Assembly (NCBI GenBank): GCA_029856045.1
Contig: JAHQWG010000025.1
Location: 1-64,000 of the forward strand
Length of the DNA: 64,000 nt
Direction of reading: 5' to 3'
Source: Promethearchaeia archaeon
GTDB lineage: Archaea; Asgardarchaeota; Lokiarchaeia; Sigyniarchaeales; SOKP01
Under the pieces are notes generated by a model that was not told the DNA's origin, made no database searches, and worked only from the letters and a program-made list of their open reading frames with translations. Each line of letters opens with the position of its first letter. The first letter of the stretch is position 1. Below, piece after piece: positions 5,736 through 23,034 of this stretch. The translations under genes were made by a program, and so were the position numbers.

Positions 5736-5934
5736 ATTTAAATCAACTCTATAAGCTTATAAAATATTGATATGTAGGATATAAACTAAACTCAATAAAA
5801 AATCGAAAGATAATATGATTAGGACTAATAATAAAGAATCTCTGATAATTTGACGATAAATGATTAAAATAAGAAGAAGAGCAATTGGAAAAAAAAATAA
5901 ATATTGAATTAAAAGAAAAAGAGGATGGAAAAAT

Positions 5935-6543
5935 TTAAAAAAAAGAACTAGATTTCTTATTGAATTCTTTTTCTCCCAAATCATCTCGTATAATATTCAT
6001 AGCAGAAGTAATTGACACTCTCCATTTGACTGCAATCTTGCGTATAGGATCTGGATTTTCGGAGCGACCGTCTTTAATTATGCTCTCTCGTTGCTCATCG
6101 GATATACTATCTTCAGACTTTGGAAACCTTTCTTCATAACCTTTCTCTGTTAAAACCTTATGGGAGATCTTTATTAATGTATAGAGGGATACCTTTAAAT
6201 TCATTTCTTCTAGTTTTTCACGAATTTTATTCTGTGAAATCTTTGTATATCTGATATAATATTTAAGGAGATTATTTAGATTTTTATTTTCATTAAATTT
6301 ATCTATTCTTTTTACTAAATTATCTTTCTCTTCTTTAGTTAGTGCATCATTTTCTTTACTTTTAATAAATTTAATAAATTTCTTAGTAAAATGAGTACCC
6401 TTATAGGCAACACCATCATGTTTCTTTATTATTTCTTGCAATTTTATTAATGCAGGGCTCGATGGCAGATATTTATCTTTATCGAAATCCCCATATACCT
6501 TTTCTATTATAAAACCAACCTTAGTAAACAACTGTTTGGTCAT
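5935..6543 (-). pseudogene. Probable chimeric remnant: SAM-methyltransferase C-terminal tail joined to an HTH-containing fragment
   Basis: N-terminus LFTKVGFIIEKVYGDFDKDKYLPSSPALI resembles the last strands of class I methyltransferases; C-terminus has the HTH-like PIRKIAVKWRVSITSAMNII. Confidence 0.45.
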
Positions 6544-6554
6544 TAAAAATAATT

Positions 6555-7436
6555 CTAAACGCTTTGTATTTCTCTTTGAGATATGTTAGTTTCAATATCC
6601 AACAATTTTCTTTCTATATCAATAGAATTATTCCATAATTGTCCAAAAAAATTTTTCAAAACATAAATCAAAGGTTTGCAATTCGTCCAAAATCCAGCTT
6701 TTTCCCGATGGTTTTTATTTTTTGGTGTAATTCCAAAAAAAATTTCCTTATTATCTATAATTATCAAAAAATGTATTAAATTTGGATCAATATTAACATG
6801 ATGAATATTACTTTTATGATGCACACTTAAAATTTCTTTATTTAAAAATCTCATTATTTTAAAATTTTCTTCTGTAATACAAGTTAATAACCTAATTTTT
6901 ATAATATCTTTATTTATAGCATCTTTAATACTGATAACTGAAGGATTTGAACGAGGGCCATTAATTTTCGTTAAAATAGCCAATATCTCTGTGTCAGCAT
7001 TTTCAATCATTTGTAAAAATTTGGAAAAGAGAATATATTCACCTTGGATGATTGTAAACTTTTCTGAATCATATTCATAATTTTTACTCTTAATACTTGA
7101 CCATAAACTGATCGAATCATTTCTTTTATCTTCTAAAAATCTTACTTCTCCTTTCTTTGTTTTAATAAGTAAATCCAAAACTTTTTCAAATGGAATTGCC
7201 GTAAATCGCATTGGGGATTCCATACTTACCTCTATTATTCCGTAATTTTGCAGATTCTTGATAATATGATAAACCTGAGCTTTATGCAAATTCATTTTTC
7301 TAGATATATCAATTGCCTTATGTGTTCCATTCTTAGCAAGAAAAATGTACACTTTTGATTCTAATTCCGTTAAACCTGTGTCTTTAAGAGCCTCTACAAG
7401 CCATATTTTTTCTGAGAGGATTTCATTATCTAGCAT
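6555..7436 (-). CDS. TrmB-family sugar-sensing transcriptional regulator
   Basis: GLTELESKVYIFL...A.DISR....KAQVY.IIKNL...GII......PMRF.A.P wHTH, plus a C-terminal effector domain (IIIDNKE, WTN). Confidence 0.88.
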   Translation of the reverse strand: MLDNEILSEKIWLVEALKDTGLTELESKVYIFLAKNGTHKAIDISRKMNLHKAQVYHIIKNLQNYGIIEVSMESPMRFTAIPFEKVLDLLIKTKKGEVRFLEDKRNDSISLWSSIKSKNYEYDSEKFTIIQGEYILFSKFLQMIENADTEILAILTKINGPRSNPSVISIKDAINKDIIKIRLLTCITEENFKIMRFLNKEILSVHHKSNIHHVNIDPNLIHFLIIIDNKEIFFGITPKNKNHREKAGFWTNCKPLIYVLKNFFGQLWNNSIDIERKLLDIETNISQREIQSV

Positions 7437-7558
7437 TATTATCTGATTAGTTTTGTTATTTCATGTAAAATTGAACATGCATTAATTATAAGTGACCTTG
7501 TGACCATTTAAATATTTTCATTCATAATATTTAAATTACTTTTATTATAATAGTAATT

Positions 7559-8173
7559 ATGCCTAAAGCTTTTTCAGATAGAGAGAAAAAGATTATAAAA
7601 AAGAAATTACTCGAAAAAGGTAAGGAGTATTTTAGAATATTTGGATTAAAAAAAACAAATATAGGAGAACTAACAAAATCTATAGGCATAGCCAAAGGAA
7701 CATTCTATAATTTTTATAAATCGAAAGAAAAACTATTTTTAGATATATTAGAAAAAGTTGAACAAGATCATGTTGATTTCCTGTCTAAAGAAATCACTAA
7801 TATTGATAAATCTCCAAAGGATATATTTAAATTTTTTCTTAAATATCGATATAATGTTATTGAAACTGAACCTATAATAAAGATGCTCCTTACTAGTGAT
7901 GAAATGGATTACCTTTTTAGAATATTACCAGAAACCACACGTATAAACTTTATTCGTAGAAAAATAGATAATGAATATATGATACAATTTAACAAAAAAT
8001 GGCAAGAAGATGGTTTGTTAAAAAAAATTGATCCTGAAATTTTGGCTAACTTATATCGAATATTTGCTGTAATTAGTATAGGTAAAGAACATGTTGGTAA
8101 GTCGAAGATTAATGAAACAATTGATTTACTTATAGATATTTTAGCAGACTACTTAATAATTCCGTCAGAATGA
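7559..8173 (+). CDS. TetR/AcrR-family transcriptional regulator
   Basis: F..FGLKKTNIGELTKSIGIAKGTFYNFYKSKEKLF. Confidence 0.9.
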   Translation: MPKAFSDREKKIIKKKLLEKGKEYFRIFGLKKTNIGELTKSIGIAKGTFYNFYKSKEKLFLDILEKVEQDHVDFLSKEITNIDKSPKDIFKFFLKYRYNVIETEPIIKMLLTSDEMDYLFRILPETTRINFIRRKIDNEYMIQFNKKWQEDGLLKKIDPEILANLYRIFAVISIGKEHVGKSKINETIDLLIDILADYLIIPSE

Positions 8174-8321
8174 TTTTTTAGGCTATTTTAATCCAAACTA
8201 TGCTAGAAGTACTTAATATTTTACGTATTATTGTGAAAATAATCAATCACTTTTCTTCAAGTTTAAAATTCTAAAATTTTTATTGATAGAACTTTTAATA
8301 TTTCTTTAGAATTATGCTATT

Positions 8322-8345
8322 AGTAAGTAACAATTGTGAATGAAT
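8322..8345. promoter_or_regulatory. Operator copy 1 (AGTAAGTAACAATTGTGAATGAAT), then AA and TATA-like TTTTTATTA
   Basis: One of six copies of a 24-bp imperfect palindrome; upstream of 8394. Confidence 0.8.
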
Positions 8346-8393
8346 AATTTTTATTAGTGAAACGATAATAATTTTAAAATAGTTGTTAAAAAA

Positions 8394-9524
8394 ATGCCGA
8401 AAGAATTAGTATTTTTAGGACCTAGAAAAGTTGGATTTAGAGAATACGAGGAGCCTCCTTTAAAGGACACCGAAGTAAGAATTAAGACCCTATATTCTGG
8501 GATTAGTAGTGGTACAGAATTAGCTATTTATAGAGGGCAAGCACCCATGTTTAAAAGAACCATTAAAGATGGTTTGTTTGCTGATGGAGAACCTATATAT
8601 CAATATCCATTGGTTTATGGATATGAAGAATATGGAGAGGTAATTGAAATAGGAAAGAAGGTGGAAGAAGAAAACAAGTATAAAGTTGGATCTTTCGTGG
8701 CAGCATCATATGGACACAGAGAAACAGGTGTTGTTGATGCCTTTGAATCAATTAAAGAATCACTAAATTTCTATGGATTAATCGAAATTCCGCCCCCACG
8801 AAAAATGCCCCCATCTGTTAAAGATAAAAAATTAGCTAAAAGAATGATGGCAGTTTCATTAGGAGGATTATCTTATGATGGGATAGTCATGTCAGGCATC
8901 CAAGCAGGTGAATCCGCAGTAATTTTTGGTCAAGGACAAATTGGACTTTGTTGTACTTTAAGTTGTAAACAAATTGGTGTCAATCCAGTAATAGCAGTTG
9001 ACGTGGTTGATGAGAGGCTTGAACTTGCGAAAGAATTTGGAGCAGATTATGTTTTTAATCCAAATAAGTGCAATGTAGCAGAAGAAGTAAGAAAAAAATT
9101 AAAAACAAGATATGCCCTTCCCGGTGCTGATGTAGTTTTCGACGCCTCAGGATCATATAAAGCGCTTAAAGATGCTATTAGATGTGGAGCTCCTGGATAT
9201 GGAAAAGTTATTGCAATTGGCTTCTATAAAGGACCTGCTACCGAACTTGATTTGGGAGAGGAGTTTCACCACGGTCTTGGTGCAAGTACAATCATATCTG
9301 TTGGACCATATGCTCGTCAACTATATCGAGCAACGGCTCCTGGAAGAAAATGGGATATGAAAAGAGTAGGGATGGCCTATTTCCGTTTAACTTTAGGGAA
9401 AGAAGATTTAATTGATAAATTGGTAAGTCATACTTTTAAATTTGAAGATGCGTTGAAAGCATATGAAATTTTAGACAAACATCCCGAGAATTGTCTTAAA
9501 ATGCTCTTAACTTTTCAAGAATAA
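8394..9524 (+). CDS. MDR-superfamily (zinc-binding alcohol dehydrogenase-like) sugar dehydrogenase
   Basis: SGISSGTE, GYE..GEV.E.G, GQGQIG Rossmann motif, GAD.VFDASG. Confidence 0.85.
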   Translation: MPKELVFLGPRKVGFREYEEPPLKDTEVRIKTLYSGISSGTELAIYRGQAPMFKRTIKDGLFADGEPIYQYPLVYGYEEYGEVIEIGKKVEEENKYKVGSFVAASYGHRETGVVDAFESIKESLNFYGLIEIPPPRKMPPSVKDKKLAKRMMAVSLGGLSYDGIVMSGIQAGESAVIFGQGQIGLCCTLSCKQIGVNPVIAVDVVDERLELAKEFGADYVFNPNKCNVAEEVRKKLKTRYALPGADVVFDASGSYKALKDAIRCGAPGYGKVIAIGFYKGPATELDLGEEFHHGLGASTIISVGPYARQLYRATAPGRKWDMKRVGMAYFRLTLGKEDLIDKLVSHTFKFEDALKAYEILDKHPENCLKMLLTFQE

Positions 9525-9550
9525 TATCATTTTTTATTAATATAATACTA

Positions 9551-9561
9551 TTTTTTTTTTT
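9551..9561 (+). terminator. Archaeal oligo-T terminator candidate
   Basis: T11 run shortly after the stop of 8394..9524. Confidence 0.45.
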
Positions 9562-9619
9562 AATTTATTTAGCTTTTGAGAAATTCAAACAATCATCATT
9601 ATTTAATTCTCTAGTAATA

Positions 9620-9643
9620 AGTCAGTTATAATTGTTACTAACT
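9620..9643. promoter_or_regulatory. Operator copy 2 (AGTCAGTTATAATTGTTACTAACT), then AA and TCTTTAAAT
   Basis: Same palindrome family and TATA spacing; upstream of the MFS gene. Confidence 0.72.
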
Positions 9644-9733
9644 AATCTTTAAATGTAGACTTATTATAATTAAATTGTTTAGAATTTGTATTAATTTAGT
9701 TCTATCTACAAAAAAATATTTAAAGAAGACAGG

Positions 9734-11167
9734 TTGAATATTATGAGTAACGAAGATAAGTCCAAAAAAAATGTAGCTACTCTTGACGTACCATCGCACT
9801 CACTAAAAGTTATGGCTTCTTTTTCGGTTGCTAGTTTAGGATTAGGAATCATTACATCTGCGATTGGAATGCAACTGTTATATTTCTATGAAGTTCTCTT
9901 GCAAATGCCAGCAGCATTATTCATCATAGGTAACGGAATTTATGTGATTTGGGATGCTATCGATGATCCTTTGCTAGGATATATGTCTGATCGCCCAAAG
10001 CGCTTTTGGGGAAAATGGGGTAAGCGATATCCTTGGGTAATGGTATCTTTTGCTCCAGTTTGTATAACCTTTGCCTTGCTTTATGGGCCTCCATTCAGTG
10101 ATGAAATGCTTTTACTTGCTTGGTTAATTGTTAACCTCTTTATATTTGATACTTTTCGATCGTTGTGGAACATTAATTTTAGTGCACTCTTATATGAAAA
10201 ATATATCACTGATGATGAACGGACTAAGATATCTGGATTTAACAACATTTTCCGGCAACTTGGTGGAGTTTTTGCTATGATAGTGCCTGGATTTTTGATT
10301 AATTATATGGATCCTAGCACTTTTTTAAATTATGGAATTTTTGTTTCAATATTATCTGCTATATGTGTGATCATAGCCATACCAGGAATGAAAGAAGATA
10401 AATGGATGAAAGAAAGAGCTGTTTTATTAGCTCAAAGTGGTGTGTATAGAGGATCAACTCTCGTCGATTTCTTTTCAACAATGAAAAGAGGATTTAAAAC
10501 ACGAAACTTCAGTGTGTTTTTAATAGTCGGTACATTATTTTTTCTTATGTCAATAATGCAACAAGCTTCAATACCTTATTATATTTCTTATATTTTAGTA
10601 TTGGGTGCTGAAGCTCAGCTTCTAATCTATATGCCATATCTCATTATTGTAATAGCAGTGACTCCATTCGCAGTAAAAATTGCTAAAAAAATTAATCCAG
10701 TAAAAATGTTTAAGTATTTATTATTTACTTATGGAATAGGGGCATTCCTACTGTTAATTCCAACGGATTTGATTAGTGCTATAATAGTACAATCCATAAT
10801 TGCATTTATATCTGGATTTACAATAATCGTCCTAACCCCTGTAATTGGGATGATGCTTGATGAGGCCACCTTATCCTTTAAAGCACATAAAGAAGGTATT
10901 CTACTCGGAATCTATATTTTTTTCCAGGCTTTAGCTGGATTCGCTAGTACTTTGATTATTTTGTTAGTTCATTCGCTTACAGGGTTTGATCCTACACTAG
11001 GTGCATCACAAACTGCTTTAGCTTTTTTCGGCCTCCGATTACAAATCGCAATTATCCCCGGGATTATAATGATGATAGCAGGGATAATTTTCATGTTTGG
11101 TTGGACACTTACAGATGAAAAAATGGTAGAAATTCGAGCAAAGTTGAAAGAGTTAAAACTTAGGTAG
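9734..11167 (+). CDS. MFS transporter, glycoside-pentoside-hexuronide (MelB/GPH) cation symporter family
   Basis: WDAIDDPLLGYMSDR...WGKRYPW; about 12 TM segments. Confidence 0.9.
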   Translation: MNIMSNEDKSKKNVATLDVPSHSLKVMASFSVASLGLGIITSAIGMQLLYFYEVLLQMPAALFIIGNGIYVIWDAIDDPLLGYMSDRPKRFWGKWGKRYPWVMVSFAPVCITFALLYGPPFSDEMLLLAWLIVNLFIFDTFRSLWNINFSALLYEKYITDDERTKISGFNNIFRQLGGVFAMIVPGFLINYMDPSTFLNYGIFVSILSAICVIIAIPGMKEDKWMKERAVLLAQSGVYRGSTLVDFFSTMKRGFKTRNFSVFLIVGTLFFLMSIMQQASIPYYISYILVLGAEAQLLIYMPYLIIVIAVTPFAVKIAKKINPVKMFKYLLFTYGIGAFLLLIPTDLISAIIVQSIIAFISGFTIIVLTPVIGMMLDEATLSFKAHKEGILLGIYIFFQALAGFASTLIILLVHSLTGFDPTLGASQTALAFFGLRLQIAIIPGIIMMIAGIIFMFGWTLTDEKMVEIRAKLKELKLR

Positions 11168-11195
11168 GTATTAATCTCAATAATTAATTTATTAC

Positions 11196-11208
11196 TTTTT
11201 TTTTTTTT
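11196..11208 (+). terminator. Oligo-T terminator candidate between convergent genes
   Basis: T13 run after the MFS stop codon. Confidence 0.45.
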
Positions 11209-11240
11209 ATTTTAATTCTAAAATATTTTTTTTAATGATT

Positions 11241-12485
11241 CTATAAGTCAAAATGCTTATTAATGTCATTTTCATAGAAGGAGGTTTTCCCTTTCTCAAT
11301 ATCATCAACCAATACCGAACGATCTAAATATGAGGATTCAATAATGGCATAAGCAATAGCTAAATCTTTTAATCCTTCTTTCCCACTGATTTCCATTTCA
11401 TTCCCTTCAAGAATGGCATTTAAAAAATCTAAAGTCTCCAATGCTGCTGCGTCAGTTAGACCGTAAGGAAAAAATTTGTCTTTTATTCCTTGGGATGCAT
11501 TTTCATCAAATAATTGATTAACACTTGTTTTTGTTCCATCATCTAAATTGACAATATTCGATTTTATTGACCCTTTAGTCCCATATATAGTGGGAAACAT
11601 CATTATTGGCGGACCATGTAAAGCCCATGAATATGATATTTGACCTAGAGCTCCACTTTTGAATTTTAAAATAGCCAAGAAGGTATCATCAACTTCACTT
11701 TTAATTCTTTGAATAATTTTTCCTGTCTTATCGCGATTTACCCTAGTATCTTCAAAAATTCTAACAATTCCTTGAACAGATTCAACCTCTCCACAATAAC
11801 TTCTCAGAAGACTGAGGAAATGTACACCCATGTCTAATGTTACTCCACCTCCAGCCTGTAGTTTTAAATGACGCCAAGGGGTTTCTGCAACAATCTTATC
11901 GGGAGACCACCAACCTCCTAATCCGGCTTGAAATACTAACTGAATGTTACCAATACATCCTTGGTCAATTACCCACTTGGTTTTTCTCATTCCGGGTATG
12001 AAATGTATGCCTTCGCCTACACCTAATACTTTTTTAGCCTTTTCTGCCGCTTCTACCATTTTCCGTGCTGCTTTCACAGTAATAGCTATTGGTTTTTCCA
12101 CCATAACATGCTTATCTTCATATAAACTATCAATTGTGATAAAATGATGAGTATCAACGCTAGTATAGATATCCACGGCATCAATATCGGCTTCTTTAAG
12201 CATATTTTTATAATTATCATAAAGTTCAATATCAATGTCACTTTTTTGAAAATCTGAAACATATATGTGAGGTGCATGAAGTGGATCTCCTGGAGGACCA
12301 ACCGGGTCTTTTGGTTGTGACCCCTCACTACGCTTCCTAAATCTTAAAGCATTTTCAATATGCTTATCACATAATGCTCTAATCTCTACTTCAAAGCCCT
12401 TTTCCATTAATGCTTTGTATCCATGTAAATGGATAGGCATGATTCTACCGCACCCTACCAATCCTACTTTAATTTTTTTTGACAT
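11241..12485 (-). CDS. Gfo/Idh/MocA family NAD(P)-dependent oxidoreductase
   Basis: VGLVGCGRI, KHVMVEKP, GGG..LDMGVH. Confidence 0.9.
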   Translation of the reverse strand: MSKKIKVGLVGCGRIMPIHLHGYKALMEKGFEVEIRALCDKHIENALRFRKRSEGSQPKDPVGPPGDPLHAPHIYVSDFQKSDIDIELYDNYKNMLKEADIDAVDIYTSVDTHHFITIDSLYEDKHVMVEKPIAITVKAARKMVEAAEKAKKVLGVGEGIHFIPGMRKTKWVIDQGCIGNIQLVFQAGLGGWWSPDKIVAETPWRHLKLQAGGGVTLDMGVHFLSLLRSYCGEVESVQGIVRIFEDTRVNRDKTGKIIQRIKSEVDDTFLAILKFKSGALGQISYSWALHGPPIMMFPTIYGTKGSIKSNIVNLDDGTKTSVNQLFDENASQGIKDKFFPYGLTDAAALETLDFLNAILEGNEMEISGKEGLKDLAIAYAIIESSYLDRSVLVDDIEKGKTSFYENDINKHFDL

Positions 12486-12538
12486 TTTCTCCTACTTTTG
12501 GATTATTATTATTATGGTCTAATAAATATGCAAGCTTC

Positions 12539-13447
12539 CTACATCATTTTTTCCAAAAATTCATGAGTCCACTTTATGTCATTTATTCTTTGCTCTGTGG
12601 TTGCCATTTCTCTTTCAATTATTAGGGGGCCATTATAACCAATTTCATTTAGTTTTTGAATGAACTGCTTGGCTCCAACTTGACCCTTTCCAAATGGAAC
12701 TTCTTTGACCATGTGAGGTTTTCTTTCCCTTGCTTCAACTTCTGGAAAAAGCCCATCTTTACAATGAACTCCTTCTATGTAATCCTTGAGTAATTCCAAG
12801 GATGCGATAAGATCTATTTCAATGCCATTCATCCAACCATAATATAGAAGATTAGCTGGATCAAAATTAATTTTTAAATTCTTTGCTCCAACATCTTCAA
12901 TAAAACGTACTAAAGTTTCAGGGGTTTCTTGACCTGTTTCACATAACCAAGATTGATTATTTTTATCAAGAAATTCTGTTATTTTTTGCATGGCATCAAC
13001 TAGTCCTTTATATATAATTCTATGATAAAGATCAGATGTGTTTTCAGGTATATAACCAACATGTTGAGCAAGTTTATCAACTCCTAAATCTTTAGCGAAA
13101 TCCGATGTCATAAAGACATGCTTTATTCTCTCTTCACGGTAAATAGGATTAATTAATCCAATTGTTTCTTTTTTTACATAGTTAGTTCCTTTCCAGTGTA
13201 CAAATATAGCAGATATTTTAATTCCAGTTTCTTTTAATTTTTTAATTAATTTCTCCTTTTTTTCATCTATAAAATGTTCAATTGGAGGAGAACCAAGGTG
13301 CATAGTTTTAAATCCTAAAGAATCAACCCATTCAATTGCTTCTAAAGCATCCTTCCCCTCCCAGGTCATAACACCAATATCAAAAGCTCCCATCTTAAGT
13401 GTCGCAACCAAATATGAGAATGTTATGTTATTATTTTCAAATTTCAT
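12539..13447 (-). CDS. Xylose-isomerase-like TIM barrel (sugar phosphate isomerase/epimerase family)
   Basis: ETGQE, NFDPAN, HCKD, G.G.V, LIIERE metal-ligand pattern. Confidence 0.88.
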   Translation of the reverse strand: MKFENNNITFSYLVATLKMGAFDIGVMTWEGKDALEAIEWVDSLGFKTMHLGSPPIEHFIDEKKEKLIKKLKETGIKISAIFVHWKGTNYVKKETIGLINPIYREERIKHVFMTSDFAKDLGVDKLAQHVGYIPENTSDLYHRIIYKGLVDAMQKITEFLDKNNQSWLCETGQETPETLVRFIEDVGAKNLKINFDPANLLYYGWMNGIEIDLIASLELLKDYIEGVHCKDGLFPEVEARERKPHMVKEVPFGKGQVGAKQFIQKLNEIGYNGPLIIEREMATTEQRINDIKWTHEFLEKMM

Positions 13448-13525
13448 TTACCAATTGCTATTGAAATCTTACTATACTTGATACTTATTTGACTATTTTA
13501 CTAAAGATTTGTATTAACATCATAA

Positions 13526-14344
13526 TTAAATTAAACTCCTCACTATAGCTAACAAATTCCTTATACCTTCTCTTTGATCATATTTACCCATAGGTGGAAG
13601 TTCTAAAGAATAAAAACCGTCAAAACCCGTTTTTTTCACAATATCCATGAACGGTTTCAAGAATTTTTCACCTACTTCATTTGGTACTGTTTTTGCATGT
13701 ATAATGCTTGCATATTTACTCATTTTTCTTATACCCTCTTCTCTTATTTCAGCAGGAAATAATATGGCATTTCCTAGATCAGGTAACGTTTTCATAATAT
13801 CTGGACCTACCTCCTCGATAATCTTAATAATATTATCAGGATTTGTGGTCATACCAGGACCGTGATTTTCTATGAGTAGTTTCACACCAATTTCCCTTGC
13901 AATAACTGCGAGTTCTTTATAACCATAAATGGCTCTTTGAAGAGCATCTTCAGTCGAATCAATCTTAGCCCTAGGTAAAGGAGAATCTGGATTTACTCTT
14001 ATGGATGGTGATCCTAAATATTTGGCAATCGAAAACCATCTTTTAATTATTTCAAATTCCTCCTTCCTTTTCTCTGGATTTGGTTCTGAAGTTGTCCCAA
14101 TGTCAACACATATATTAGTAACATTTACATTTGAATCCTTTAAAGATTCTTTCATTTTTTCAATAAAATCCATTTCTACTGATGGAAATTGCATTTGGCA
14201 AAGCTCAATATTGTTTAATCCTATTTCCTCAACACAGATCTTGGGAAACTCAAGGATTGTGATCTTATCACCCCCGTATTGAGGAAAAAGATAATTTGGC
14301 AACTCACGAGAAAGGCTAAAAGAATTTACACATATTTTCTCCAC
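13526..14344 (-). CDS. Xylose-isomerase-like TIM barrel (sugar phosphate isomerase/epimerase family)
   Basis: IENHG, PDLGN, IHAK, GFYSLE. Confidence 0.88.
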   Translation of the reverse strand: MEKICVNSFSLSRELPNYLFPQYGGDKITILEFPKICVEEIGLNNIELCQMQFPSVEMDFIEKMKESLKDSNVNVTNICVDIGTTSEPNPEKRKEEFEIIKRWFSIAKYLGSPSIRVNPDSPLPRAKIDSTEDALQRAIYGYKELAVIAREIGVKLLIENHGPGMTTNPDNIIKIIEEVGPDIMKTLPDLGNAILFPAEIREEGIRKMSKYASIIHAKTVPNEVGEKFLKPFMDIVKKTGFDGFYSLELPPMGKYDQREGIRNLLAIVRSLI

Positions 14345-14486
14345 TTTAAAATCACTCTTAAATTTTTTAATATAATAATTATATTTTTTCTGAAAAAGTT
14401 TTATTAGATGCTTTTTAATGAAAATTATTTTTTATTAGAGATACTCACAGATAGGAAAAATATTACGTGGCAAATTTATAATAATT

Positions 14487-14510
14487 ATTTAGTAACAATT
14501 GTGAATAATC
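14487..14510. promoter_or_regulatory. Operator copy 3 (ATTTAGTAACAATTGTGAATAATC), between divergent units, with TATA-like boxes on both sides
   Basis: Plus side AA+TTTTTATAA; minus side AA+TTATTATAA. Confidence 0.78.
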
Positions 14511-14616
14511 AATTTTTATAAGTAATATTTCTAAATAATTTTTATAAATCAATATCAATTTTATAACCTAAGTTTTAAAACTTATAATAATTATTTAAGA
14601 GGAGGTTGAGAATTAA

Positions 14617-15729
14617 TTGACCAGAATTGTTAAATTAGCACAAGTTGGGTGTGGAAGTATAGCTCAGAGAATGATAATGAATAGGCTAAAAGCTCCCAGT
14701 GTTAAAGAAAAGGTTGAATTGATAGCTACTATGGATGTAGTTTCTGAAAGAGCTAAAGCTTGTATGGAAAAGTTTGGGGCGAAAGAATGGTATGACGATT
14801 ATGATAAGATGTTATTAAATGCAGATATCGATGCTGTAACTATTGCTACACCAATAGGATTGCATTATGAACAAGTGATTAAAGCAATATATGCAGAAAA
14901 GCATGTTCATTGTCATAAAACTATTACTACTAATGCTAGAGAAGCTACTGATATAATTGAAGTTGCTAAACAAAAAAATATTAAAGTTGTCGCTTCTCCT
15001 GGAACAAGCGTTATGAGTCCTATAGTTACCAAGATAAAACAGGTTTTAGAAAAGGGCACCATAGGAAAGGTTTATTGGGCTCAATTGGGAAGGCAATGGG
15101 AAGGGCATGAATATGAACCTTTCAGGAAATTTGGTAATATTTTAACCGATGTAGATCCTTCATGGTATTATAAAAAAGGTGGTGGACCTATGTATGATAT
15201 GGGTGTGTATGAACTTACCGAGCTCACGGCAATTTTTGGTCCTGCTAAAAAAGTATCAGCCATGTCAGGTATAGGCCTTAGAGAAAGGAAAATTAAAGAT
15301 AAAGCGATAGATGTAGAAATGGATGATAATACAATGCTTCTTCTTGATTTTGGTAATTCAATGTTCGCTTATATATTTGCAACTTTTTCAGCACTGGCGG
15401 ATGAGGGTCCTGTACCTCCCTTCAGTATTTCTGGAAGTGAAGGAGGAATGAGACTAGGTAAATTCAAGAGTGAGAGATATAAATCAATATTGGATATATG
15501 GAGTCCTTCTTTACCCGAAAAACATGAACAGGAAATTATTTCAGGTTACAGGGAAGATGCATTCTTCGATGTTATGCATCTTGTTGATTGCGTAAAAAAT
15601 GATGAAAAACCGATTGTAATGGATAATATTGAGAGCATGCAAATTGCCAGACATGTAATAGAGATTATTGAGAAAGGTTACATTGCTGCTAAGACAGGAA
15701 AAACACAAGAATTAGAAACAACTTTCTAG
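14617..15729 (+). CDS. Gfo/Idh/MocA family oxidoreductase
   Basis: VGCGSIA, DAVTIATP..LH, KHV.CHK, GGGPMYDMGVY; GGAGG upstream of the TTG start. Confidence 0.88.
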   Translation: MTRIVKLAQVGCGSIAQRMIMNRLKAPSVKEKVELIATMDVVSERAKACMEKFGAKEWYDDYDKMLLNADIDAVTIATPIGLHYEQVIKAIYAEKHVHCHKTITTNAREATDIIEVAKQKNIKVVASPGTSVMSPIVTKIKQVLEKGTIGKVYWAQLGRQWEGHEYEPFRKFGNILTDVDPSWYYKKGGGPMYDMGVYELTELTAIFGPAKKVSAMSGIGLRERKIKDKAIDVEMDDNTMLLLDFGNSMFAYIFATFSALADEGPVPPFSISGSEGGMRLGKFKSERYKSILDIWSPSLPEKHEQEIISGYREDAFFDVMHLVDCVKNDEKPIVMDNIESMQIARHVIEIIEKGYIAAKTGKTQELETTF

Positions 15730-15772
15730 TAGAAATATTACTGATAATTCTCAAATGGTAAAGTACAAATTA

Positions 15773-15796
15773 AGTCATAAATATTTGTGACTGAAT
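15773..15796. promoter_or_regulatory. Operator copy 4 (AGTCATAAATATTTGTGACTGAAT), then AA and TTTTTATAA
   Basis: Same family and spacing; upstream of 15842. Confidence 0.75.
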
Positions 15797-15841
15797 AATT
15801 TTTATAAATCCAATAGCAATTATATAACATAGGTTTTCGCA

Positions 15842-16654
15842 ATGAAATTAGGATTAAGAGTTAATGCTTTTGATTTAGGAATTTGGTTAGATAAGAATGC
15901 AATGCCACCTAAAGATGTATGGGAACCGTCCGTAAAAAGAGCAGCTGATCTTGGGTTTGATGGTGTTGAATTATGTGTGTGGTTTCCACTTTCAGAATGG
16001 TTAAATGAAGAAGATATAACTAAAATGATAGAAACTGCTAAAAAACATAATATTGAAATTGCTACTATATCTGCTGATTGGTGTCACAGTTATAGTGCTT
16101 ACCACACAAGCTTGAGTGATTGGTTAAGATGTGGCAACGGAATTGAATTATTTAAAGGTGAAATAAAATTAGCAGCGAAACTCGGAGCAAAATCAATGTT
16201 ATGGCATTTGGGTAGAGCTAAGGGTACGATGGAAGAACTTAAAAAGATTTTTTATTATTTTGCAGAAGAGGCAGAAAAACAAAAAGTCAAAATTGGCATA
16301 GAAAGCAGTTTTTGGCCAATTATTGGCCTTGGTGATCAATATATTCTAAAAGAATTATTAGATGAGATTAATAGTGAATATTTTGGAGTATATATTCATG
16401 GTGGTCGAAAAGCTGTTGAAATAATGGAAAAAAGAAGCGTGGGATTTCATTTTTATGTAATGCCTGGATTTCCCACACTTGAAGAGAAATATGATTATAA
16501 AGCATTGTTTGATACGTTTAAAAAATATTATGATTATTATATCGTTTTTGAACCCATTTCTCATTATACAAAACCTTACTCTGAATACTTATCCGATAAA
16601 TCTTTGGAAAAAGCTAAAATAGATTTTGATAGAATATTCACTAAATATCGGTAG
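15842..16654 (+). CDS. Divergent xylose-isomerase-like TIM barrel protein
   Basis: AADLGFDGVEL, AAKLGAK, KIGIE, FE near the C-terminus. Confidence 0.78.
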   Translation: MKLGLRVNAFDLGIWLDKNAMPPKDVWEPSVKRAADLGFDGVELCVWFPLSEWLNEEDITKMIETAKKHNIEIATISADWCHSYSAYHTSLSDWLRCGNGIELFKGEIKLAAKLGAKSMLWHLGRAKGTMEELKKIFYYFAEEAEKQKVKIGIESSFWPIIGLGDQYILKELLDEINSEYFGVYIHGGRKAVEIMEKRSVGFHFYVMPGFPTLEEKYDYKALFDTFKKYYDYYIVFEPISHYTKPYSEYLSDKSLEKAKIDFDRIFTKYR

Positions 16655-16687
16655 AAATATAAATATAAAAAAAAAAAGTAATCTTTT

Positions 16688-16951
16688 ATGAGTGAGATTG
16701 ATAAGATAGTCAAAATATTCGACGAAAGCATTGAAGAGGTGCAACCATTTCACGAAGAAGGTGCTGATTATATAAGAAAATTCCAAGAAGTCATAAAAGA
16801 TTTAGATGCTGAAGGTAATAAGGAAAAAGCTAAAGAATTATTTCATATAATTTTTGATCCCATGGTTGAATATGAAAGTTATGTTCCCACATCTGTAGCA
16901 CATTTTAAAAAGATTAAAGAAATTCTTATAAATAAGGGAATTGAATTATAA
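16688..16951 (+). CDS. Small acidic helical protein of unknown function, paralog A
   Basis: 39/82 ungapped identities with 20062..20310, including EYExYVPTSVAHF. Confidence 0.8.
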   Translation: MSEIDKIVKIFDESIEEVQPFHEEGADYIRKFQEVIKDLDAEGNKEKAKELFHIIFDPMVEYESYVPTSVAHFKKIKEILINKGIEL

Positions 16952-16989
16952 CCTAACTATTTTTTTTCTTTTTTTTAAAAGTATTAAAC

Positions 16990-17520
16990 ATGAAAGTTTT
17001 AAATTCAAATAATAGAACTCATGCAAAATCTACAATCTGGCCGCTTGTTTTTAATTGGATTAATGAATGTTTTGAATCTTCAAGCTTAATTTTAGATTTA
17101 GGTTCTGGAACTCACATCTGGTATATGGATAAATCAAGAATGATCCGAATTGATCATTTCAAACAAAAAATTGAAACTAATCATGAAAGTTTTATCCTTA
17201 ATGACTTAAATCGTGGGATTCCCTTAAATAATAAAACAGTTGATTATGCTGTGGCAGTTGAGGTCATAGAGCATTTAGAGAATCCACTTTTCTTTTTACA
17301 GGAAATTAGACGAGTCGTTAGGAAGAAAGCAATTATAACATGCCCAGATGGAATTGAAAGCGGGTGGTATACTCCTTGGACTTATACTTTCTTTGGTCAT
17401 ATTTCCATTCTTTCAAGTTGGTTATTAGAAAATCATTTTAGACGTGTGAAACTAGAAGTTTTAAAAAAAATGCATGATTCTGAAAAGAAAGAGATTGTCC
17501 TATATATGATAAAGATATAA
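16990..17520 (+). CDS. Class I SAM-dependent methyltransferase
   Basis: ILDLGSG, D....EVIEHLENP...L.EI.RV. Confidence 0.82.
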   Translation: MKVLNSNNRTHAKSTIWPLVFNWINECFESSSLILDLGSGTHIWYMDKSRMIRIDHFKQKIETNHESFILNDLNRGIPLNNKTVDYAVAVEVIEHLENPLFFLQEIRRVVRKKAIITCPDGIESGWYTPWTYTFFGHISILSSWLLENHFRRVKLEVLKKMHDSEKKEIVLYMIKI

Positions 17521-17522
17521 AT

Positions 17523-17546
17523 TATGAGTAACAATTGTGACTGAAT
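17523..17546. promoter_or_regulatory. Operator copy 5 (TATGAGTAACAATTGTGACTGAAT), then AA and TTCTTATAA
   Basis: Same family and spacing; upstream of 17629. Confidence 0.8.
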
Positions 17547-17628
17547 AATTCTTATAAATTAGCACATCTAAGTATATTTTACTAAATAATATCTTTATGG
17601 TTAAAAAATTAAGTGAAGGAAAAAAGAC

Positions 17629-18396
17629 ATGGAAAAAAAAGAAAAGTTACACGTTGTTTTTATCGGGGCTCATCCTGATGATGAAGGATTTTGTTCTGGT
17701 ACTCTTGCTAAGTACGCAAAAAAAGGACACAAAGTAACTATAGTATCTGCAACAAAAGGAGGTAGAGGACATTATGAAATTCCAACTGAAAAATTAAGAG
17801 AAATTAGAATGAATGAATTACAAAACGTTGCAAGAATATTAGGTACTGAAGTGATGTTTTTAGATTATGTTGATGCCGACATCCCTCCTCCAAGTGATAT
17901 GAAAGATGATTTTGTGAATTTATTACGGAAGTTAAGACCCAATATCGTAATTACATGGCATCCCTATACTGATAGAGATGATCATAGAAATATTGGGCAA
18001 GTTGTATATGATGCTTGTTTCAAATCAAGTCTCCCTCTTATAATGACGGATGATTCCTTTATCCCCCTCCCTAGAATTTATTTTATTGGTGAACCTGTGT
18101 ATCCTTCAGAGCCAGACGTTTATGTGGATATTACTAGCGTGATTAATATTAAAATTGAAGCTGTCAAAGAACATAAGAGCCAACTTGAAGAATGGATACC
18201 ATGGTCTTATGAGATGGGAACTGGAGGGAAAATCAAGCCAAACTTAGATCAAATAATAAAATATTTTGTTAAGGAACGAGGACGTAAATTTGGAATTGCT
18301 TCAGGTGTAAAATATGCAGAGGAATTCAGGATAATTGGGGCAGGAATGCCTAAAATAAAAGCTAAACAATTGCTACCTTATACAATTACTTTCTGA
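17629..18396 (+). CDS. PIG-L/LmbE family N-acetylated sugar deacetylase
   Basis: GAHPDDE, G.LAKY...G..V, T.G, R..E, DH, YVDIT, K.EA...HKSQ, YAEEF. Confidence 0.9.
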   Translation: MEKKEKLHVVFIGAHPDDEGFCSGTLAKYAKKGHKVTIVSATKGGRGHYEIPTEKLREIRMNELQNVARILGTEVMFLDYVDADIPPPSDMKDDFVNLLRKLRPNIVITWHPYTDRDDHRNIGQVVYDACFKSSLPLIMTDDSFIPLPRIYFIGEPVYPSEPDVYVDITSVINIKIEAVKEHKSQLEEWIPWSYEMGTGGKIKPNLDQIIKYFVKERGRKFGIASGVKYAEEFRIIGAGMPKIKAKQLLPYTITF

Positions 18397-18600
18397 ATTT
18401 ACTTCAATTCATTATTTTTTTATTTGAATAATTTATTTATCTTTTTGGAAAAGGTTTTATCATGGGAGGGGATTAAACATTCATTAATTATTAAACCTTA
18501 TACAAATAAAAAAATTTTATAAATTCATGAATATTTCAATAGAATTTCTTATTATTTTTAAACAAATTTCCTTAAATTAATTGTCAACTTAGAAGAGAAG

Positions 18601-19863
18601 ATGAAGAATTATAAAATACGAGACGATTTATGGGAAAGAATTCGTAGTAAGATGGATGAGATAAAAATTGTAGACACTCACGAACATTTAGGTCGTGCAT
18701 TTCCAATATTTACTATAAGCAAAAAATACAACATGAATTTGATAACATTTTTAGCACATTCTTATCTTTATGGCGATTTAATTTCTTCAGGAATGAAAAT
18801 GATTCCTCCAGAAAAAATGAGTTGGCAACAACTCAAGCCATTTCTAGAAAACGTGAAAAATTCAATCTATTTCAGATATTTACTGAGAGCATTAAAGGAT
18901 TTTTATGGACTTAAGGAAGATAATATAAATGATAATAATTGGAAAGCAATATCTTATCTAATCAGTAAAAAAACTGAAAACCATATTCAATGGTCCTTGG
19001 AAGTGCTTGATTTAATGAATATTCACCGCATGATTCTTGATATAAGTAAGGGATGTATAGTGAATACTGAAATGATTAATGACGACCGACTAGTTCAAGT
19101 TGTAAAAATGGATGATTTTATCATGGGGGGGTTAAATATTGTTAAAAAATTTACTAATAACTCGGTAGATAAGCTTGACGATTATTTGGAAGTACTTGAT
19201 ATGGCTTTCGAAATAGCAAAAATGAATAAAGTAATAGGAGTTAAATGTGCAATAGGATATAATAGAATCATCAGCTTTGATTCTATAGAGAAATCTGAAG
19301 CTCAAAAAATCTTTAGTAATGGTATTAGAAATGTAAGTTTAGCAGATAGAAAAAAATTCCAAGATTATATGATGCATATTGTTTGTGAAAGATCCATTAA
19401 ACATGATCTTCCTATCCAAGTTCATACAGGATTGCAAGCAGGAAATTTTAATGATATAACAAATGCTAAACCTACACATCTAACTAATTTATTTAAAAAG
19501 TATAAAAAAGCACGTTTTGTTTTATTCCATGGAAGTTATCCTTACATACAAGAAGCTGGAGTTTTAGCAAAATACTTTCCCAATGTATATCTTGATGCGT
19601 GCTGGTTATCTCATATCTCTCCATCATCATATAGACGTGGATTGGATGAATGGCTCGACATTGTACCATCTAATAAAATTTTTGCCTGGGGTGGTGATCA
19701 TGAAATAATAGAACATAGCTACGCTTCATTGATGCTTGCGAAAGATCTTATTACTGATGTCCTAGTTAATAAAATAATATCGGGAGATTCCAGTGAAAAA
19801 ATCGCGATTTCGCTAATGGAGAAAATTCTTCATGGAAATTCCATTAACTTTTATGGTCTATAA
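18601..19863 (+). CDS. Amidohydrolase-fold metalloenzyme (glucuronate isomerase-like)
   Basis: IVDTHEH, K (carbamate position), QVHTG, LFHG.YP, PNVYLD, WGGD. Confidence 0.82.
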   Translation: MKNYKIRDDLWERIRSKMDEIKIVDTHEHLGRAFPIFTISKKYNMNLITFLAHSYLYGDLISSGMKMIPPEKMSWQQLKPFLENVKNSIYFRYLLRALKDFYGLKEDNINDNNWKAISYLISKKTENHIQWSLEVLDLMNIHRMILDISKGCIVNTEMINDDRLVQVVKMDDFIMGGLNIVKKFTNNSVDKLDDYLEVLDMAFEIAKMNKVIGVKCAIGYNRIISFDSIEKSEAQKIFSNGIRNVSLADRKKFQDYMMHIVCERSIKHDLPIQVHTGLQAGNFNDITNAKPTHLTNLFKKYKKARFVLFHGSYPYIQEAGVLAKYFPNVYLDACWLSHISPSSYRRGLDEWLDIVPSNKIFAWGGDHEIIEHSYASLMLAKDLITDVLVNKIISGDSSEKIAISLMEKILHGNSINFYGL

Positions 19864-19992
19864 ATCTCTATTTTTACAAATTATCAATTATACTTAAAAA
19901 AATTAAATTTTAGATTATATAATTTAAGTGTTAATTGATGATCCCAAGGGACTAAATTCAATTGTTCTTAAGTAATAAGAAATGCGTTTTGT

Positions 19993-20016
19993 AGTCAGTA
20001 ACATTTGTGAATGAAT
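19993..20016. promoter_or_regulatory. Operator copy 6 (AGTCAGTAACATTTGTGAATGAAT), then AG and CTTTTTTAAA
   Basis: Same family and spacing; upstream of 20062. Confidence 0.8.
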
Positions 20017-20061
20017 AGCTTTTTTAAATGTAGAGATAATTATTTAAATTGAGTTATAATT

Positions 20062-20310
20062 ATGAGTGAAATAGAAGAATATATAAAAAAACTTAATGAA
20101 AGTGCAGAAGAAGTAGAACCATTAAGCCCTGAAGGAGGAGATCGAATAAGAGACATTATAGAACTGGTTAAAAATATAAATGAAGGAGATAATAAGAAAA
20201 AAGCTTTAGATTTAGTAATGGAGATACTTGAAAGGATGGAGGAATATGAAACTTATGTTCCCACCTCTGTCGCACACTTTAGATTTCTTAAGGAGGAATT
20301 CTCTAAATAA
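20062..20310 (+). CDS. Small acidic helical protein of unknown function, paralog B
   Basis: Paralog of 16688..16951; has its own operator/promoter and downstream T-runs. Confidence 0.8.
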   Translation: MSEIEEYIKKLNESAEEVEPLSPEGGDRIRDIIELVKNINEGDNKKKALDLVMEILERMEEYETYVPTSVAHFRFLKEEFSK

Positions 20311-20405
20311 AATTTTTAAATCTTCTTTTTTTTAATGCTCCCTTTTTTTTATTGTTTAGAATAGGATTATCTCAGTGAACAAAAAATTTAAGGAAATATT
20401 TGTAT

Positions 20406-20528
20406 CTATAGATTTTCTCGAATAAAATTCCAAATTACATTGTTAACTTTTTCCGGAGCTTCAATTGTTAATCCATGACTTAATCCTGGAAGAATTTCTA
20501 CTTTTGAATTTGGGATTCTTTCATCACT
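20406..20528 (-). pseudogene. C-terminal fragment of an alpha/beta hydrolase
   Basis: Manual translation SDERIPNSKVEILPGLSHGLTIEAPEKVNNVIWNFIRENL* (catalytic His region only). Confidence 0.7.
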
Positions 20529-20875
20529 TGACTTTGAAATAAAGGTATTGGTAGTTCCATGAGTGCTCTCTATAGCATTCAACTTAGTAGGTTTAATCCA
20601 AGCGACAATTGCGAACTCATTATTAAAGGGGCTATTATACGATCCAAAAACATCATTAAGAATATCTCCGAAATAGTTACTCGAATTGAAAGATAAGGTT
20701 TCTTCTTTATATTTTAGGGAGTCATATGTCTTTATACAAAATTCTCATCAAGATACGCTTTAAATACTAATGCTGGAGGGAGCGAAGGATACCCGATAAT
20801 TAATTCTTCTATATATCCTTCAAAGGAAGAGGTTAACACGAAACTCAGGAAACATTCATTAACATGAATATGGTA
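20529..20875 (-). pseudogene. Frameshifted LamG/concanavalin-A-like domain fragment
   Basis: FEGYIEELII..LVFKAYLDEN / frameshift / KTYDS...LSFN..NYFGDILNDVFG...EFAIVAWIKP; no intact start. Confidence 0.5.
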
Positions 20876-21932
20876 CCTTGAGATGAATTATTTGTTTTTT
20901 TGCCTAATTTAACACACTTTATTTCTTTTATCAAGACTTTTAACCACCCCGATTTTAAGCGATAAAAAAGTATAGTGTAGGGCAAAGGCGTTAGAGATTA
21001 CATAGTAATAAACAGGAGGAAGGACTTCTTTTAACCTTAGATTTCGCAGTCCTTTATTTCATATGTCGGTATTTTGAATTACAACAGAGTAAAATATGAG
21101 AGTTGGATATTTTAATATTTACTAAAGTATTTGATTATTTTAAGCTAAAATTAACAAGTGTGAATTCTTTAATCCTTTTTTCACTTGGAATTGGTTTTGT
21201 TTTAACTATTCATATACGATATATGGGTTGATAATCAGTATAATTAATTGATATTTATTTTATGTAGAATGCTTTAACTTTTTTTATTCTTAGATTCATT
21301 GATTGGACTTGAATTTGCTAATGATTTTTTAATTGTTGGAGCATATGCTGTAAAGAAAATTTATAAGACTATTAAATCTCTCTAAATTTTTTAAAAATAT
21401 ATTATATAGTTAAATAAATCTTGTCTAAAATTTATTTCCAAAGAATTACTTGAATGAAATAACAAATCTCTCTTCCCTCATATCGAGAAGGTTTTTAATA
21501 TTACTGAAGATTGAATCTACAGCTGGTTCATTTTTACCGTTAACATTAAGTAAAATTAATGTTAATTATGTTCCTTTACCTTAATGTTTAATCGTCGATT
21601 GTTTACTAAGAGTTGTAACATCCAAAATAACGAGGTTGGAAAATTATTTTCAAAATTTTATATATTTTAGAAGGTCTTATGACGAAATATGCACATAATT
21701 TTATAAATTCATGAAAATATAATAGGATGAACCGTGTTAAAAAATGCAATCCATGAAGAATAACAATGTTTCAATCCATTTCACAAATTCAAATAACAAT
21801 TTTCATCTTAAATGAAATTTTAATATCTTTAAGATTACTAACTATAAGTTTAGCCAGTTTTTTTATTATTCTATACTACACAAAAAGTAAGAAATGGAAT
21901 TATTTATTTAAGTATGCATTAACTGTTGCTCT

Positions 21933-22568
21933 ATGTCTTTATGGTGTACATTTAATATTCTTCTTATTTTTAATAAGAAATTTCATAAAAATATATTAAA
22001 ATTAATAGGTTTTGAGAATCATAAATTAATTGAAAAAATCGCCCCACAAGATTTTGATGAAAAAAGGAAAAAATCTCCAGATGTTCCAATACTCATTTCA
22101 GAGCCCAAAATTTATACTACTAGTAAAAAACGCTGTAATAATGCATTTAAAAATGATAAAAAATATCTACAAATACTTCTAAAAGACAAAATCGCTAAAG
22201 AGTTAAAAATTGATCCTAAAAAATTAGACCACATAAAAGTTGTGCTTTTTGATTATACCAGTTGGTTACAGAAAGTTAACATCATGGATAAGATTGAGAA
22301 ATATCAACATTCCAAAATTATGTTATTTATTGTCGGGACATATTGGTTTCAAAATTGGATAAGTCGAGTTAAGAAACTCCCTAAAGATAAAAGAATTAAA
22401 TATCCCGAAAATATTCGAATTATTAAATGGGATCTTTTTGCCAATTTGTTAAATCTGAGTGATGATAACCAGAAGCGACTTAAGGTAATCATTAAATTAA
22501 GTAGATCAAAAGATTTAGAAACCTTGAGAAAACTTAACGAACAAAATAATTATAAATTGCATCGTTAA
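21933..22568 (+). CDS. Hypothetical protein, probably a 5'-truncated remnant
   Basis: 211-aa ORF whose start overlaps a short hydrophobic ORF (21766..21999); PD...FDYT..KIEKYQ..LFIVGT.W. Confidence 0.4.
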   Translation: MSLWCTFNILLIFNKKFHKNILKLIGFENHKLIEKIAPQDFDEKRKKSPDVPILISEPKIYTTSKKRCNNAFKNDKKYLQILLKDKIAKELKIDPKKLDHIKVVLFDYTSWLQKVNIMDKIEKYQHSKIMLFIVGTYWFQNWISRVKKLPKDKRIKYPENIRIIKWDLFANLLNLSDDNQKRLKVIIKLSRSKDLETLRKLNEQNNYKLHR

Positions 22569-22816
22569 AAAAAATCAAAAACTAGAAAAAAAGGGTTTAA
22601 TTACAATTTAGATGCATTTTTGTCGAAAATTTAAATAAAGAAACAGAAGAAGAGGTAAAATTTGAAGAAAAAGATTTAAAAGATTTGGAAAAATCTAAGA
22701 CTTCCCAATTAGGGTAATGCATCAAACATTTCGATAATAAATTCTTTATTTTCTACTTTTTTTATCGTTCCAGTTACGACAATATTCTCAGCCTTCTTTT
22801 CTGATAATAGAATTCC

Positions 22817-22951: not shown

Positions 22952-23034
22952 TAGCAAAAAATATCAGCAAGGAATATATTGGATGGAATTTCTGCCATCA
23001 CATAAACTTTTAAATCATTTTTACCTCTTACAAG
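22942..23034 (-). pseudogene. ppsA: Internal 31-codon fragment of phosphoenolpyruvate synthase
   Basis: LVRGKNDLKVYVMAEIPSNIFLADIFCYYFD matches the PEP-synthase segment preceding GFSIGSNDL. Confidence 0.8.

Follow-up and report, generated by a model that had tools for sequence, protein, structure and literature searches.

A 24-bp palindrome was found in six copies, each directly upstream of a TATA-like box, in a 64,000-nt stretch of DNA from a Promethearchaeia archaeon (SOKP01, Sigyniarchaeales). The stretch, hereafter the window, comprises positions 1–64,000 of contig JAHQWG010000025.1 (assembly GCA_029856045.1; 3.34 Mb, 55 contigs, 29% G+C), and the archaeal origin of the genome was indicated by its small-subunit rRNA. 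Comparison of sequences supported the view that the copies act as the operator of a regulon restricted to a 17.9-kb island (5108–23031), which was absent from three congeneric genomes and held all six sites, two regulator genes and the genes for an oxidative sugar/glycoside pathway. The chances were judged to be slightly better than even that these sites form the operator of the TrmB-like protein encoded on the same island (6555–7436). To our knowledge, cis-regulatory sites to which a regulator can be assigned are almost unknown in Asgard-type archaea, and none is yet genetically testable.

Sequence, symmetry and position of the six sites

The 24-bp sites started at positions 8322, 9620, 14487, 15773, 17523 and 19993. 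All six had been reported at these positions in an earlier analysis made from the letters of this DNA without database searches (the sequence-only reading), and all were recovered. The ideal palindrome given in that reading had to be replaced, as no copy came within 3 mismatches of it; the true consensus was AGTCAGTAACAATTGTGAMTGAAT, which was self-complementary at 10 of 12 positions. The exact core ACAATTGT was present in three of the six copies, and the other three were 1–2 bases off. The left arm was consistently AGTMAGTAAC and the right arm GTGAMTGAAT, giving a core of AGTNAC-N4-GTNACT whose inner hexamers, AGTNAC and GTNACT, were 10 bp apart from centre to centre. Copies 1 to 6 were self-complementary at 8, 9, 8, 6, 8 and 8 of 12 positions, respectively, while the genome background had a mean of 3.4 of 12 and a probability of 0.009 for 8 or more.

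Archaeal promoters consist of an A/T-rich TATA box directly preceded by the adenines of the B recognition element (BRE), with transcripts beginning about 25 nt downstream. In every copy, the 24-mer was followed by a 2-nt spacer (AA in five copies, AG in copy 6) and then by a TATA-like box, as the sequence-only reading had described. The T/A-rich octamers past the spacer were TTTTTATT, TCTTTAAA, TTTTTATA, TTTTTATA, TTCTTATA and CTTTTTTAAA, all near the archaeal TATA consensus. Information content dropped to background at the left edge of the 24-mer and about 12 nt beyond its right edge; because conservation ended sharply on both sides, the conserved unit was the operator, 2 nt and the TATA box, and nothing more. 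The distal arm, which lies too far upstream for the BRE, was as conserved as the proximal arm. In published archaeal promoters, the TATA box is centred near −26/−27 and the BRE adenines lie at −34/−33 (PMC4158304). On this geometry the operator centre would fall near −44, the BRE core probably corresponds to the conserved AA spacer, and the remaining BRE is probably covered by the proximal arm. The upstream regions of the tRNA genes and open reading frames (ORFs) of this 29% G+C genome showed no sharp TATA position and yielded no general promoter consensus, and a scan for sigma-70 promoters and terminators gave results at chance level.

Specificity of the sites and conservation in a related contig

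The whole assembly was scanned with a symmetrised position weight matrix (PWM). The six sites scored 23.9–30.8 bits; the next-best match (19.4 bits) lay within an ORF on contig C34 and was discarded as a further site for that reason, and all others scored 15 bits or less. In leave-one-out scans each site ranked first genome-wide, except that the C34 match ranked above the site at 14487. No match was found at any other promoter of the genome. The earlier statement that there is no full copy outside the island could thus be extended to the entire 3.34 Mb, and the search brought no further members to the regulon, the motif not being common at unrelated promoters. None of 399 other genomes of the phylum gave a comparable score, and the degenerate 24-mer with up to 3 mismatches had 7 single matches in these genomes, compared with 6 for the reversed control.

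When metagenome contigs were scanned for the exact pattern, eight loci were obtained, of which seven were discarded as coding or isolated chance matches. The eighth, contig L025 (1.6 kb), was a homologous piece of the island that carried the 87-aa gene, the methyltransferase gene, the site and the PIG-L gene, with coding DNA about 82% identical. Its intergenic region contained a block identical to copy 5 at 29 of 29 nt, spanning most of the operator, the AA spacer and the start of the TATA box. Next to this block were a 37-nt indel and DNA that could not be aligned, and identity fell again beyond it. As judged from this alignment, the block is the strongest single evidence of selection on the operator. 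The candidate regulon proposed in the sequence-only reading was upheld by these results, since the sites were unique in the genome, tightly bounded, in fixed register with the TATA box and footprinted in L025.

In 400 Bathyarchaeia genomes scanned with an 18-mer at no more than 1 mismatch, the matches fell mostly in ORFs and were rejected. Matches in genomes G407 and G409 were also rejected, being repeats or coding. Two close relatives (loci L160 and L161 of G731 and G702, respectively) shared a conserved 24-mer, 20 of whose 24 positions agreed with the operator consensus, within a long stretch free of ORFs, and no TetR_N gene was found in either genome. This site was set aside as uninformative because the surrounding DNA was about 90% identical throughout.

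The TrmB-like protein and the palindromes of a distant homologue

The winged helix-turn-helix (wHTH) profile PF01978 of the TrmB type matched residues 17–84 of the TrmB-like protein (E 1.3e-15, above the curated cut-off) and matched 12 of 12 close homologues. PF11495 gave a weak match (E 0.03) and was matched by 9 of the 12 homologues. A sequence search with the protein returned no match to TrmB. The recognition helix of Pfu TrmB has a conserved tyrosine, Y50 (PMC4158304); in family alignments of the protein studied here, Y56 was invariant or nearly so and occupied domain position 40, as Y50 would, a correspondence by domain position and not by residue-level alignment with TrmB.

A structure model was built on an alignment of 42 sequences (predicted local distance difference test, 86). 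It showed a helix at residues 83–115 followed by an alpha/beta domain, and the phospholipase D (PLD)-like domain was followed by only two helices before the chain ended at residue 293. Foldseek analysis of the model revealed TrmBL2 over its full length (E 1e-15), TrmB 3qph (1e-9) and PLD-fold nucleases (1e-8). In the model, the protein is of TrmBL2 architecture, without the C-terminal sugar-binding beta-barrel of TrmB. That subdomain holds six of the seven sugar-contacting residues of TrmB (PMC4158304), and its absence weakened the earlier argument from sugar-sensing TrmB regulators. The TrmBL2-architecture family had 449 representatives at E<1e-30, many of them about 680 aa long with a second matched stretch; fused or duplicated forms thus appear to be common in it.

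No close orthologue of the protein was found in the 40 related genomes searched. A close homologue elsewhere, encoded on a 2-kb contig, was 85% identical (P0002). The relatives were mostly Bathyarchaeia proteins, of which those at the genome loci fetched were 30–38% identical and those from the database up to 44%. In 27 loci (468 kb) flanking such homologues, the window-derived PWM matched only at L043 from Bathyarchaeia genome G400, at two intergenic sites of 26.7 and 20.1 bits; the highest score reached in 2000 shuffles was 18.7 bits. The G400 homologue had the same recognition helix as the island protein (LHKAQVY.I.KNL). These two palindromes lay beside its gene, and a third, near-perfect palindrome was present on another contig. 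Within the order of G400, the orthologue and the palindrome were both confined to this genome. No TTGT[CG]AC palindromes were found upstream of TrmB paralogues in relatives, where start-codon calls are unreliable.

The TetR protein and the promoter region shared by the regulators

The second regulator gene of the island (7559–8173) is divergent to the first. PF00440 (TetR_N) matched residues 17–62 of its product (E 7e-7, above the cut-off), and sequence matches to TetR-family structures reached residue 167. This agrees with the TetR layout, in which an N-terminal helix-turn-helix is followed by an all-helical ligand-binding domain. A close homologue elsewhere, encoded on a 26-kb contig, was 90% identical (P0167). 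Since such homologues exist for both regulators (85% and 90%), travel with the island does not discriminate between them as the binder.

In the intergenic region of the two genes (7437–7558), the best full-PWM score was below 0. GTGACC occurred twice (7492 and 7500), 2 nt apart, and a half-operator-like 12-mer at 7516–7527 (9.2 bits) abutted a TATA box. GTGACC/GGTCAC had only three occurrences in the whole 64 kb, and the half-operator-like sequence was bracketed by a perfect 11-bp inverted repeat (7506–7516 and 7526–7536).

Of 154 genomes of the order, 16 had an orthologue of the TetR protein, whose gene was in each case divergent to one for a short-chain dehydrogenase (SDR). The orthologues were 39–43% identical overall and about 70% identical in the DNA-binding domain. 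Their control regions contained conserved tandem (A/G)GTCA(C/T) units and a 12-mer with 12.0 bits in the half-operator PWM. This 12-mer abutted a TATA box with an AA spacer, and the 9.2-bit half-site of the window was at the homologous position. The promoter of one more distant orthologue (L114) had a 12-mer identical to the core of the G400 sites. In loci L142–L155, L113 and L114, a conserved array of four (A/G)GTCA units with an 8-bp period was located between two TATA boxes; it is probably a TetR operator. We know of no description of this array in TetR-SDR intergenic regions.

Proposed mechanism and alternative explanations

We propose that the sites are bound by a regulator encoded on the same 17.9-kb island, whose six operator copies would control seven promoters of oxidative sugar/glycoside utilisation genes. 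The binder would be the TrmB-family protein, acting as a coiled-coil dimer of TrmBL2-like architecture. Such a dimer would read two successive major grooves at the inner hexamers, which fits their 10-bp centre spacing, and contacts with the outer 4–5 bases would lengthen the bound site to 24 bp. As only two bases separate the site from the TATA box, its TATA-proximal arm would overlap the TFB-binding position. Binding to palindromes at or next to the BRE/TATA is known for TrmB-family proteins (PMC4158304). A bound dimer would keep TFB/TBP off otherwise strong promoters, and repression would be lifted by a substrate-derived signal; ligand sensing may be supplied by the TetR protein. Repression by BRE blocking appeared a little more probable than activation, because TATA boxes near the consensus and identical between copies suggest strong promoters held by a repressor, and because TrmB at the trehalose/maltose promoter is the closest precedent. 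TrmBL1/Tgr activate from sites just upstream of the BRE/TATA (PMC4158304), and the operator would be in that activating position here, which leaves repression insecure. The sequence-only reading was correct that sequence cannot tell activation from TFB blocking.

The TrmB-like protein had been named the best candidate binder in the sequence-only reading. That choice was strengthened by the G400 homologue, in which the same recognition helix goes together with the palindrome, and was weakened in that the agreement was limited to one lineage. Several observations weigh against this protein. The palindrome was not enriched in five other Bathyarchaeia genomes whose homologues have an identical or almost identical recognition helix. 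In G400, the target genes were unrelated to sugars and the sites did not obviously abut TATA boxes. The protein has neither the sugar-binding subdomain nor a recognisable sugar pocket, and the promoter of its own gene has no full operator. At least two of the promoter modules were related by duplication, so that the six copies do not represent six independent events.

The same operator and regulon could instead belong to the TetR protein, perhaps as two dimers on the 24 bp in the manner of QacR. Its ligand-binding domain would then sense the substrate directly, and the TrmB-like protein would be a bystander or a target. This explanation was already named as the alternative in the sequence-only reading and proved to be a serious one, because the orthologue promoters in the 16 genomes carry operator-like half-sites at the TATA box with the AA spacer, a finding that also counts against the TrmB-like protein. 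The window TetR promoter has its half-site at the same place, and the L114 12-mer repeats the G400 core. The gene lies 149 bp upstream of copy 1, its 90%-identical homologue indicates that it also travels with the island, and its product has the ligand-binding domain that is missing from the TrmB-like architecture. The TetR protein was also weakly similar in sequence to QacR and Sulfolobus FadR. QacR and FadR use long operators, and QacR-type proteins bind as two dimers. However, the full palindrome was present in 0 of the 16 orthologue genomes, and the half-site likeness was largely one shared 5–6-mer in an AT-rich context, of marginal significance. TetR operators are usually located in the regulator's own divergent intergenic region, whereas that of the window gene contained no full operator. 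G400 had three full palindromes and no TetR_N gene was found in it, which is weak evidence as G400 is a partial assembly of 1.4 Mb. Taken together, binding by TetR was regarded as possible but doubtful. A combination of both regulators was considered unlikely. In a two-tier switch, TetR would sense the ligand and control the divergent regulator pair through the GTGACC and half-site elements at 7437–7558, and the TrmBL2-architecture protein would be the sequence-specific executor on the six BRE-overlapping operators; in a composite version, both proteins would share an operator made of inner hexamers and outer 4-mers.

Two explanations dispense with a specific regulator. If the repeats had arisen by local duplication of a single strong promoter module, the palindrome would be an upstream promoter element that no specific regulator binds. 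The copy-4 promoter and the promoter at 14517–14585 were indeed clear paralogues, including 40 nt downstream, and the TATA-proximal arm with AA could partly be BRE. However, the other copies ceased to resemble one another precisely at the borders of the 24 + 12 nt block, the dyad symmetry was far above background, and the distal arm was conserved like the proximal arm although beyond the reach of the BRE. The L025 block was invariant while the neighbouring DNA was rearranged, and the motif was at none of the genome's other promoters, which together make this explanation improbable. Least credible of all was the reading of the palindromes as sites of recombination or of a mobile element, for example cassette junctions, which would be tied to the island's insertion and not to transcription. 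The island is indeed inserted and is bracketed by multi-copy genes (5935–6543 and 21933–22568), but no integrase or recombinase was recognised in it and no copies were found at its borders. Every copy was 5' of a gene start in fixed register with the TATA box, and one copy serves a divergent gene pair.

Other candidates were rejected. The 202-aa gene next to the TrmB-like gene had weak HTH-like leads and is a multi-copy element gene in relatives that have no operator. The two proteins of about 85 aa encoded within the regulon are very acidic and helical, so that DNA binding is unlikely. A role as an RNA hairpin or terminator was dismissed because copy 3 has no upstream gene, the stems pair at only 6–9 of 12 positions and conservation continues into the TATA box.

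Comparison with known regulators

TrmB of Pyrococcus/Thermococcus acts at the trehalose/maltose promoter through the operator TACT-N3-AGTA, and the proposed system shares with it the PF01978 wHTH, a regulator gene located at the border of a sugar-utilisation cluster that moves horizontally, and a palindrome at the BRE/TATA, where TrmB represses by blocking assembly of the transcription machinery (PMC4158304). In contrast, the operator here has 24 bp with an AGTNAC-N4-GTNACT core, the 293-aa protein is without the C-terminal barrel, and there are six operators at seven promoters rather than one or two; binding by the protein is here a candidate assignment.

TrmBL1/Tgr with the Thermococcales glycolytic motif (TGM, TATCAC-N5-GTGATA) also reuses one palindrome at many sugar-metabolism promoters (PMC4158304, PMC4706686), and the position of the site relative to the BRE/TATA sets the sign of regulation (PMC4158304, PMC4706686). 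A CAC/GTG element is shared in one arm. The likeness of the GTGA half-site to the TGM that had been noted in the sequence-only reading was superficial, as it failed on the spacing and the flanks: the site here is AGTMAC-N4-GTKACT, the spacer is N4 and not N5, the outer bases and flanks differ, and the site is not a TGM. The regulon was confined to one island, unlike the genome-wide TGM regulon. Most likely, the system works like the TrmB/TrmBL1 regulons, a well-documented and ordinary kind of gene switch, but with a motif that is neither TGM nor TACT-N3-AGTA.

TrmBL2 (PDB 5bpd, 5box) was the best full-length structural match and likewise has a wHTH, a long helix, a PLD-like domain and no sugar-binding subdomain. 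Sequence identity with it was only about 17%. TrmBL2, of 260 aa, is an abundant component of chromatin and binds with low specificity, in coding as well as intergenic DNA (PMC4158304), whereas a highly specific six-site operator is proposed here. QacR-type TetR regulators resemble the system in that the TetR gene adjoins the regulated genes and in a long 24-bp operator with four sub-sites, besides weak sequence similarity. They differ in that no full operator was present in the intergenic region of the TetR gene, the genomes with orthologues have no palindrome and the system here is archaeal, with promoters probably of the BRE/TATA kind. The activators TFB-RF1 (PF1088) and Ptr2 also use a site immediately upstream of the BRE or touching it (PMC5937170, PMC4158304), but belong to other protein families and act at promoters with a weak BRE or TATA, while the TATA boxes here were near the consensus.

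The whole circuit is carried on one 18-kb insertion with six operators, two candidate regulators and defined targets, and it could be rebuilt with synthetic DNA and recombinant proteins. The rebuilt circuit would show how a TrmBL2-like or TetR protein meets TFB/TBP in an Asgard-type lineage and would help to identify the substrate of the oxidative sugar/glycoside pathway. Such a result would extend the biology of TrmB and TetR, not overturn it. Were the two-tier or composite version true, the island would be a portable, self-contained regulatory cassette of an Asgard-type archaeon that is testable in vitro, and in the two-tier case a specific executor would come from a family best known for a non-specific chromatin protein.

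Features of the inserted island and the putative target genes

The coordinates of the features are listed in Table 1. Window positions 5107 and 23032 were about 60 nt apart in the three congeneric genomes, with flanks 92–93% identical. The segment between them would be either a recent insertion of about 17.9 kb specific to this genome or a deletion in the other three. The genes at 5935–6543 (minus strand) and 21933–22568 (plus strand) were each multi-copy in congeneric genomes, with 75–90% nucleotide identity. There they were mutual neighbours, and here they lay one at each end of the island, in inverted orientation; both probably belong to a mobile element that had a part in the island's arrival. 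No Rfam matches were found in 5000–23000.

Table 1. Putative regulatory sites, regulator genes and target region of the island, in window coordinates.
Feature	Coordinates	Strand	Remarks
Inserted segment with whole system	5108..23031		Flanks joined with ~60 nt in three congeneric genomes
TrmB-family regulator gene, 293 aa; favoured candidate binder	6555..7436	-	wHTH, long coiled-coil helix, PLD-like domain
Divergent promoter region of both regulator genes	7437..7558		No full operator
TetR-family regulator gene, 204 aa; candidate rival binder or second control tier	7559..8173	+	
Putative operator copy 1 (24 bp) + AA + TATA-like box	8322..8355	+	5' of Zn-dependent dehydrogenase gene
Genes behind seven operator-bearing promoters	8394..20310		
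Putative operator copy 2 + AA + TATA-like box	9620..9653	+	5' of GPH/MFS_2 sugar symporter gene
Putative operator copy 3 (14487-14510), AA + TATA-like box on both sides	14475..14520		Common to divergent units 14344 (-) and 14617 (+)
Decayed second operator + AA + intact TATA	14517..14548	+	Right arm with 4-nt deletion
Putative operator copy 4 + AA + TATA	15773..15806	+	5' of TIM-barrel / 87-aa / methyltransferase unit
Putative operator copy 5 + AA + TATA	17523..17556	+	5' of PIG-L deacetylase gene; 29-nt identity in metagenome contig L025
Putative operator copy 6 + AG + T-rich TATA-like box	19993..20028	+	5' of 82-aa gene

The six sites served seven promoters, copy 3 being bidirectional. The minus-strand unit of copy 3 (11241–14344) contained two TIM-barrel genes and a GFO oxidoreductase gene, and the plus-strand unit from 14617 contained a GFO oxidoreductase gene. 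In tandem after copy 3, a module at 14517–14585 was paralogous to the copy-4 promoter in its TATA box and about 40 nt downstream; because of this relationship, promoter modules appear to have been duplicated together with genes. The amidohydrolase gene at 18601 had no operator of its own. A weak operator-like match (20048–20071, 13.5 bits) was located 31 nt past copy 6 and overlapped the start codon of the 82-aa gene.

The putative target set comprised a Zn-dehydrogenase, a GPH-type symporter, two GFO/IDH/MocA oxidoreductases, three xylose-isomerase-like TIM barrels, a methyltransferase, a PIG-L deacetylase and two acidic paralogues of about 85 aa. NCBIfam analysis revealed similarity of the Zn-dehydrogenase to scyllo-inosose 3-dehydrogenase (below the equivalog cut-off), and of the GFO oxidoreductases to levoglucosan, inositol and glycoside 3-dehydrogenases (below the equivalog cut-offs). 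The oxidative sugar/glycoside pathway, with GFO dehydrogenase and TIM-barrel proteins, was without a glycoside hydrolase or kinase. The genes at 16688–16951 and 20062–20310, both within the regulon, encoded the two paralogous, very acidic and helical proteins of about 85 aa. They had no family match, and one of them, the 87-aa gene, was kept in metagenome contig L025.

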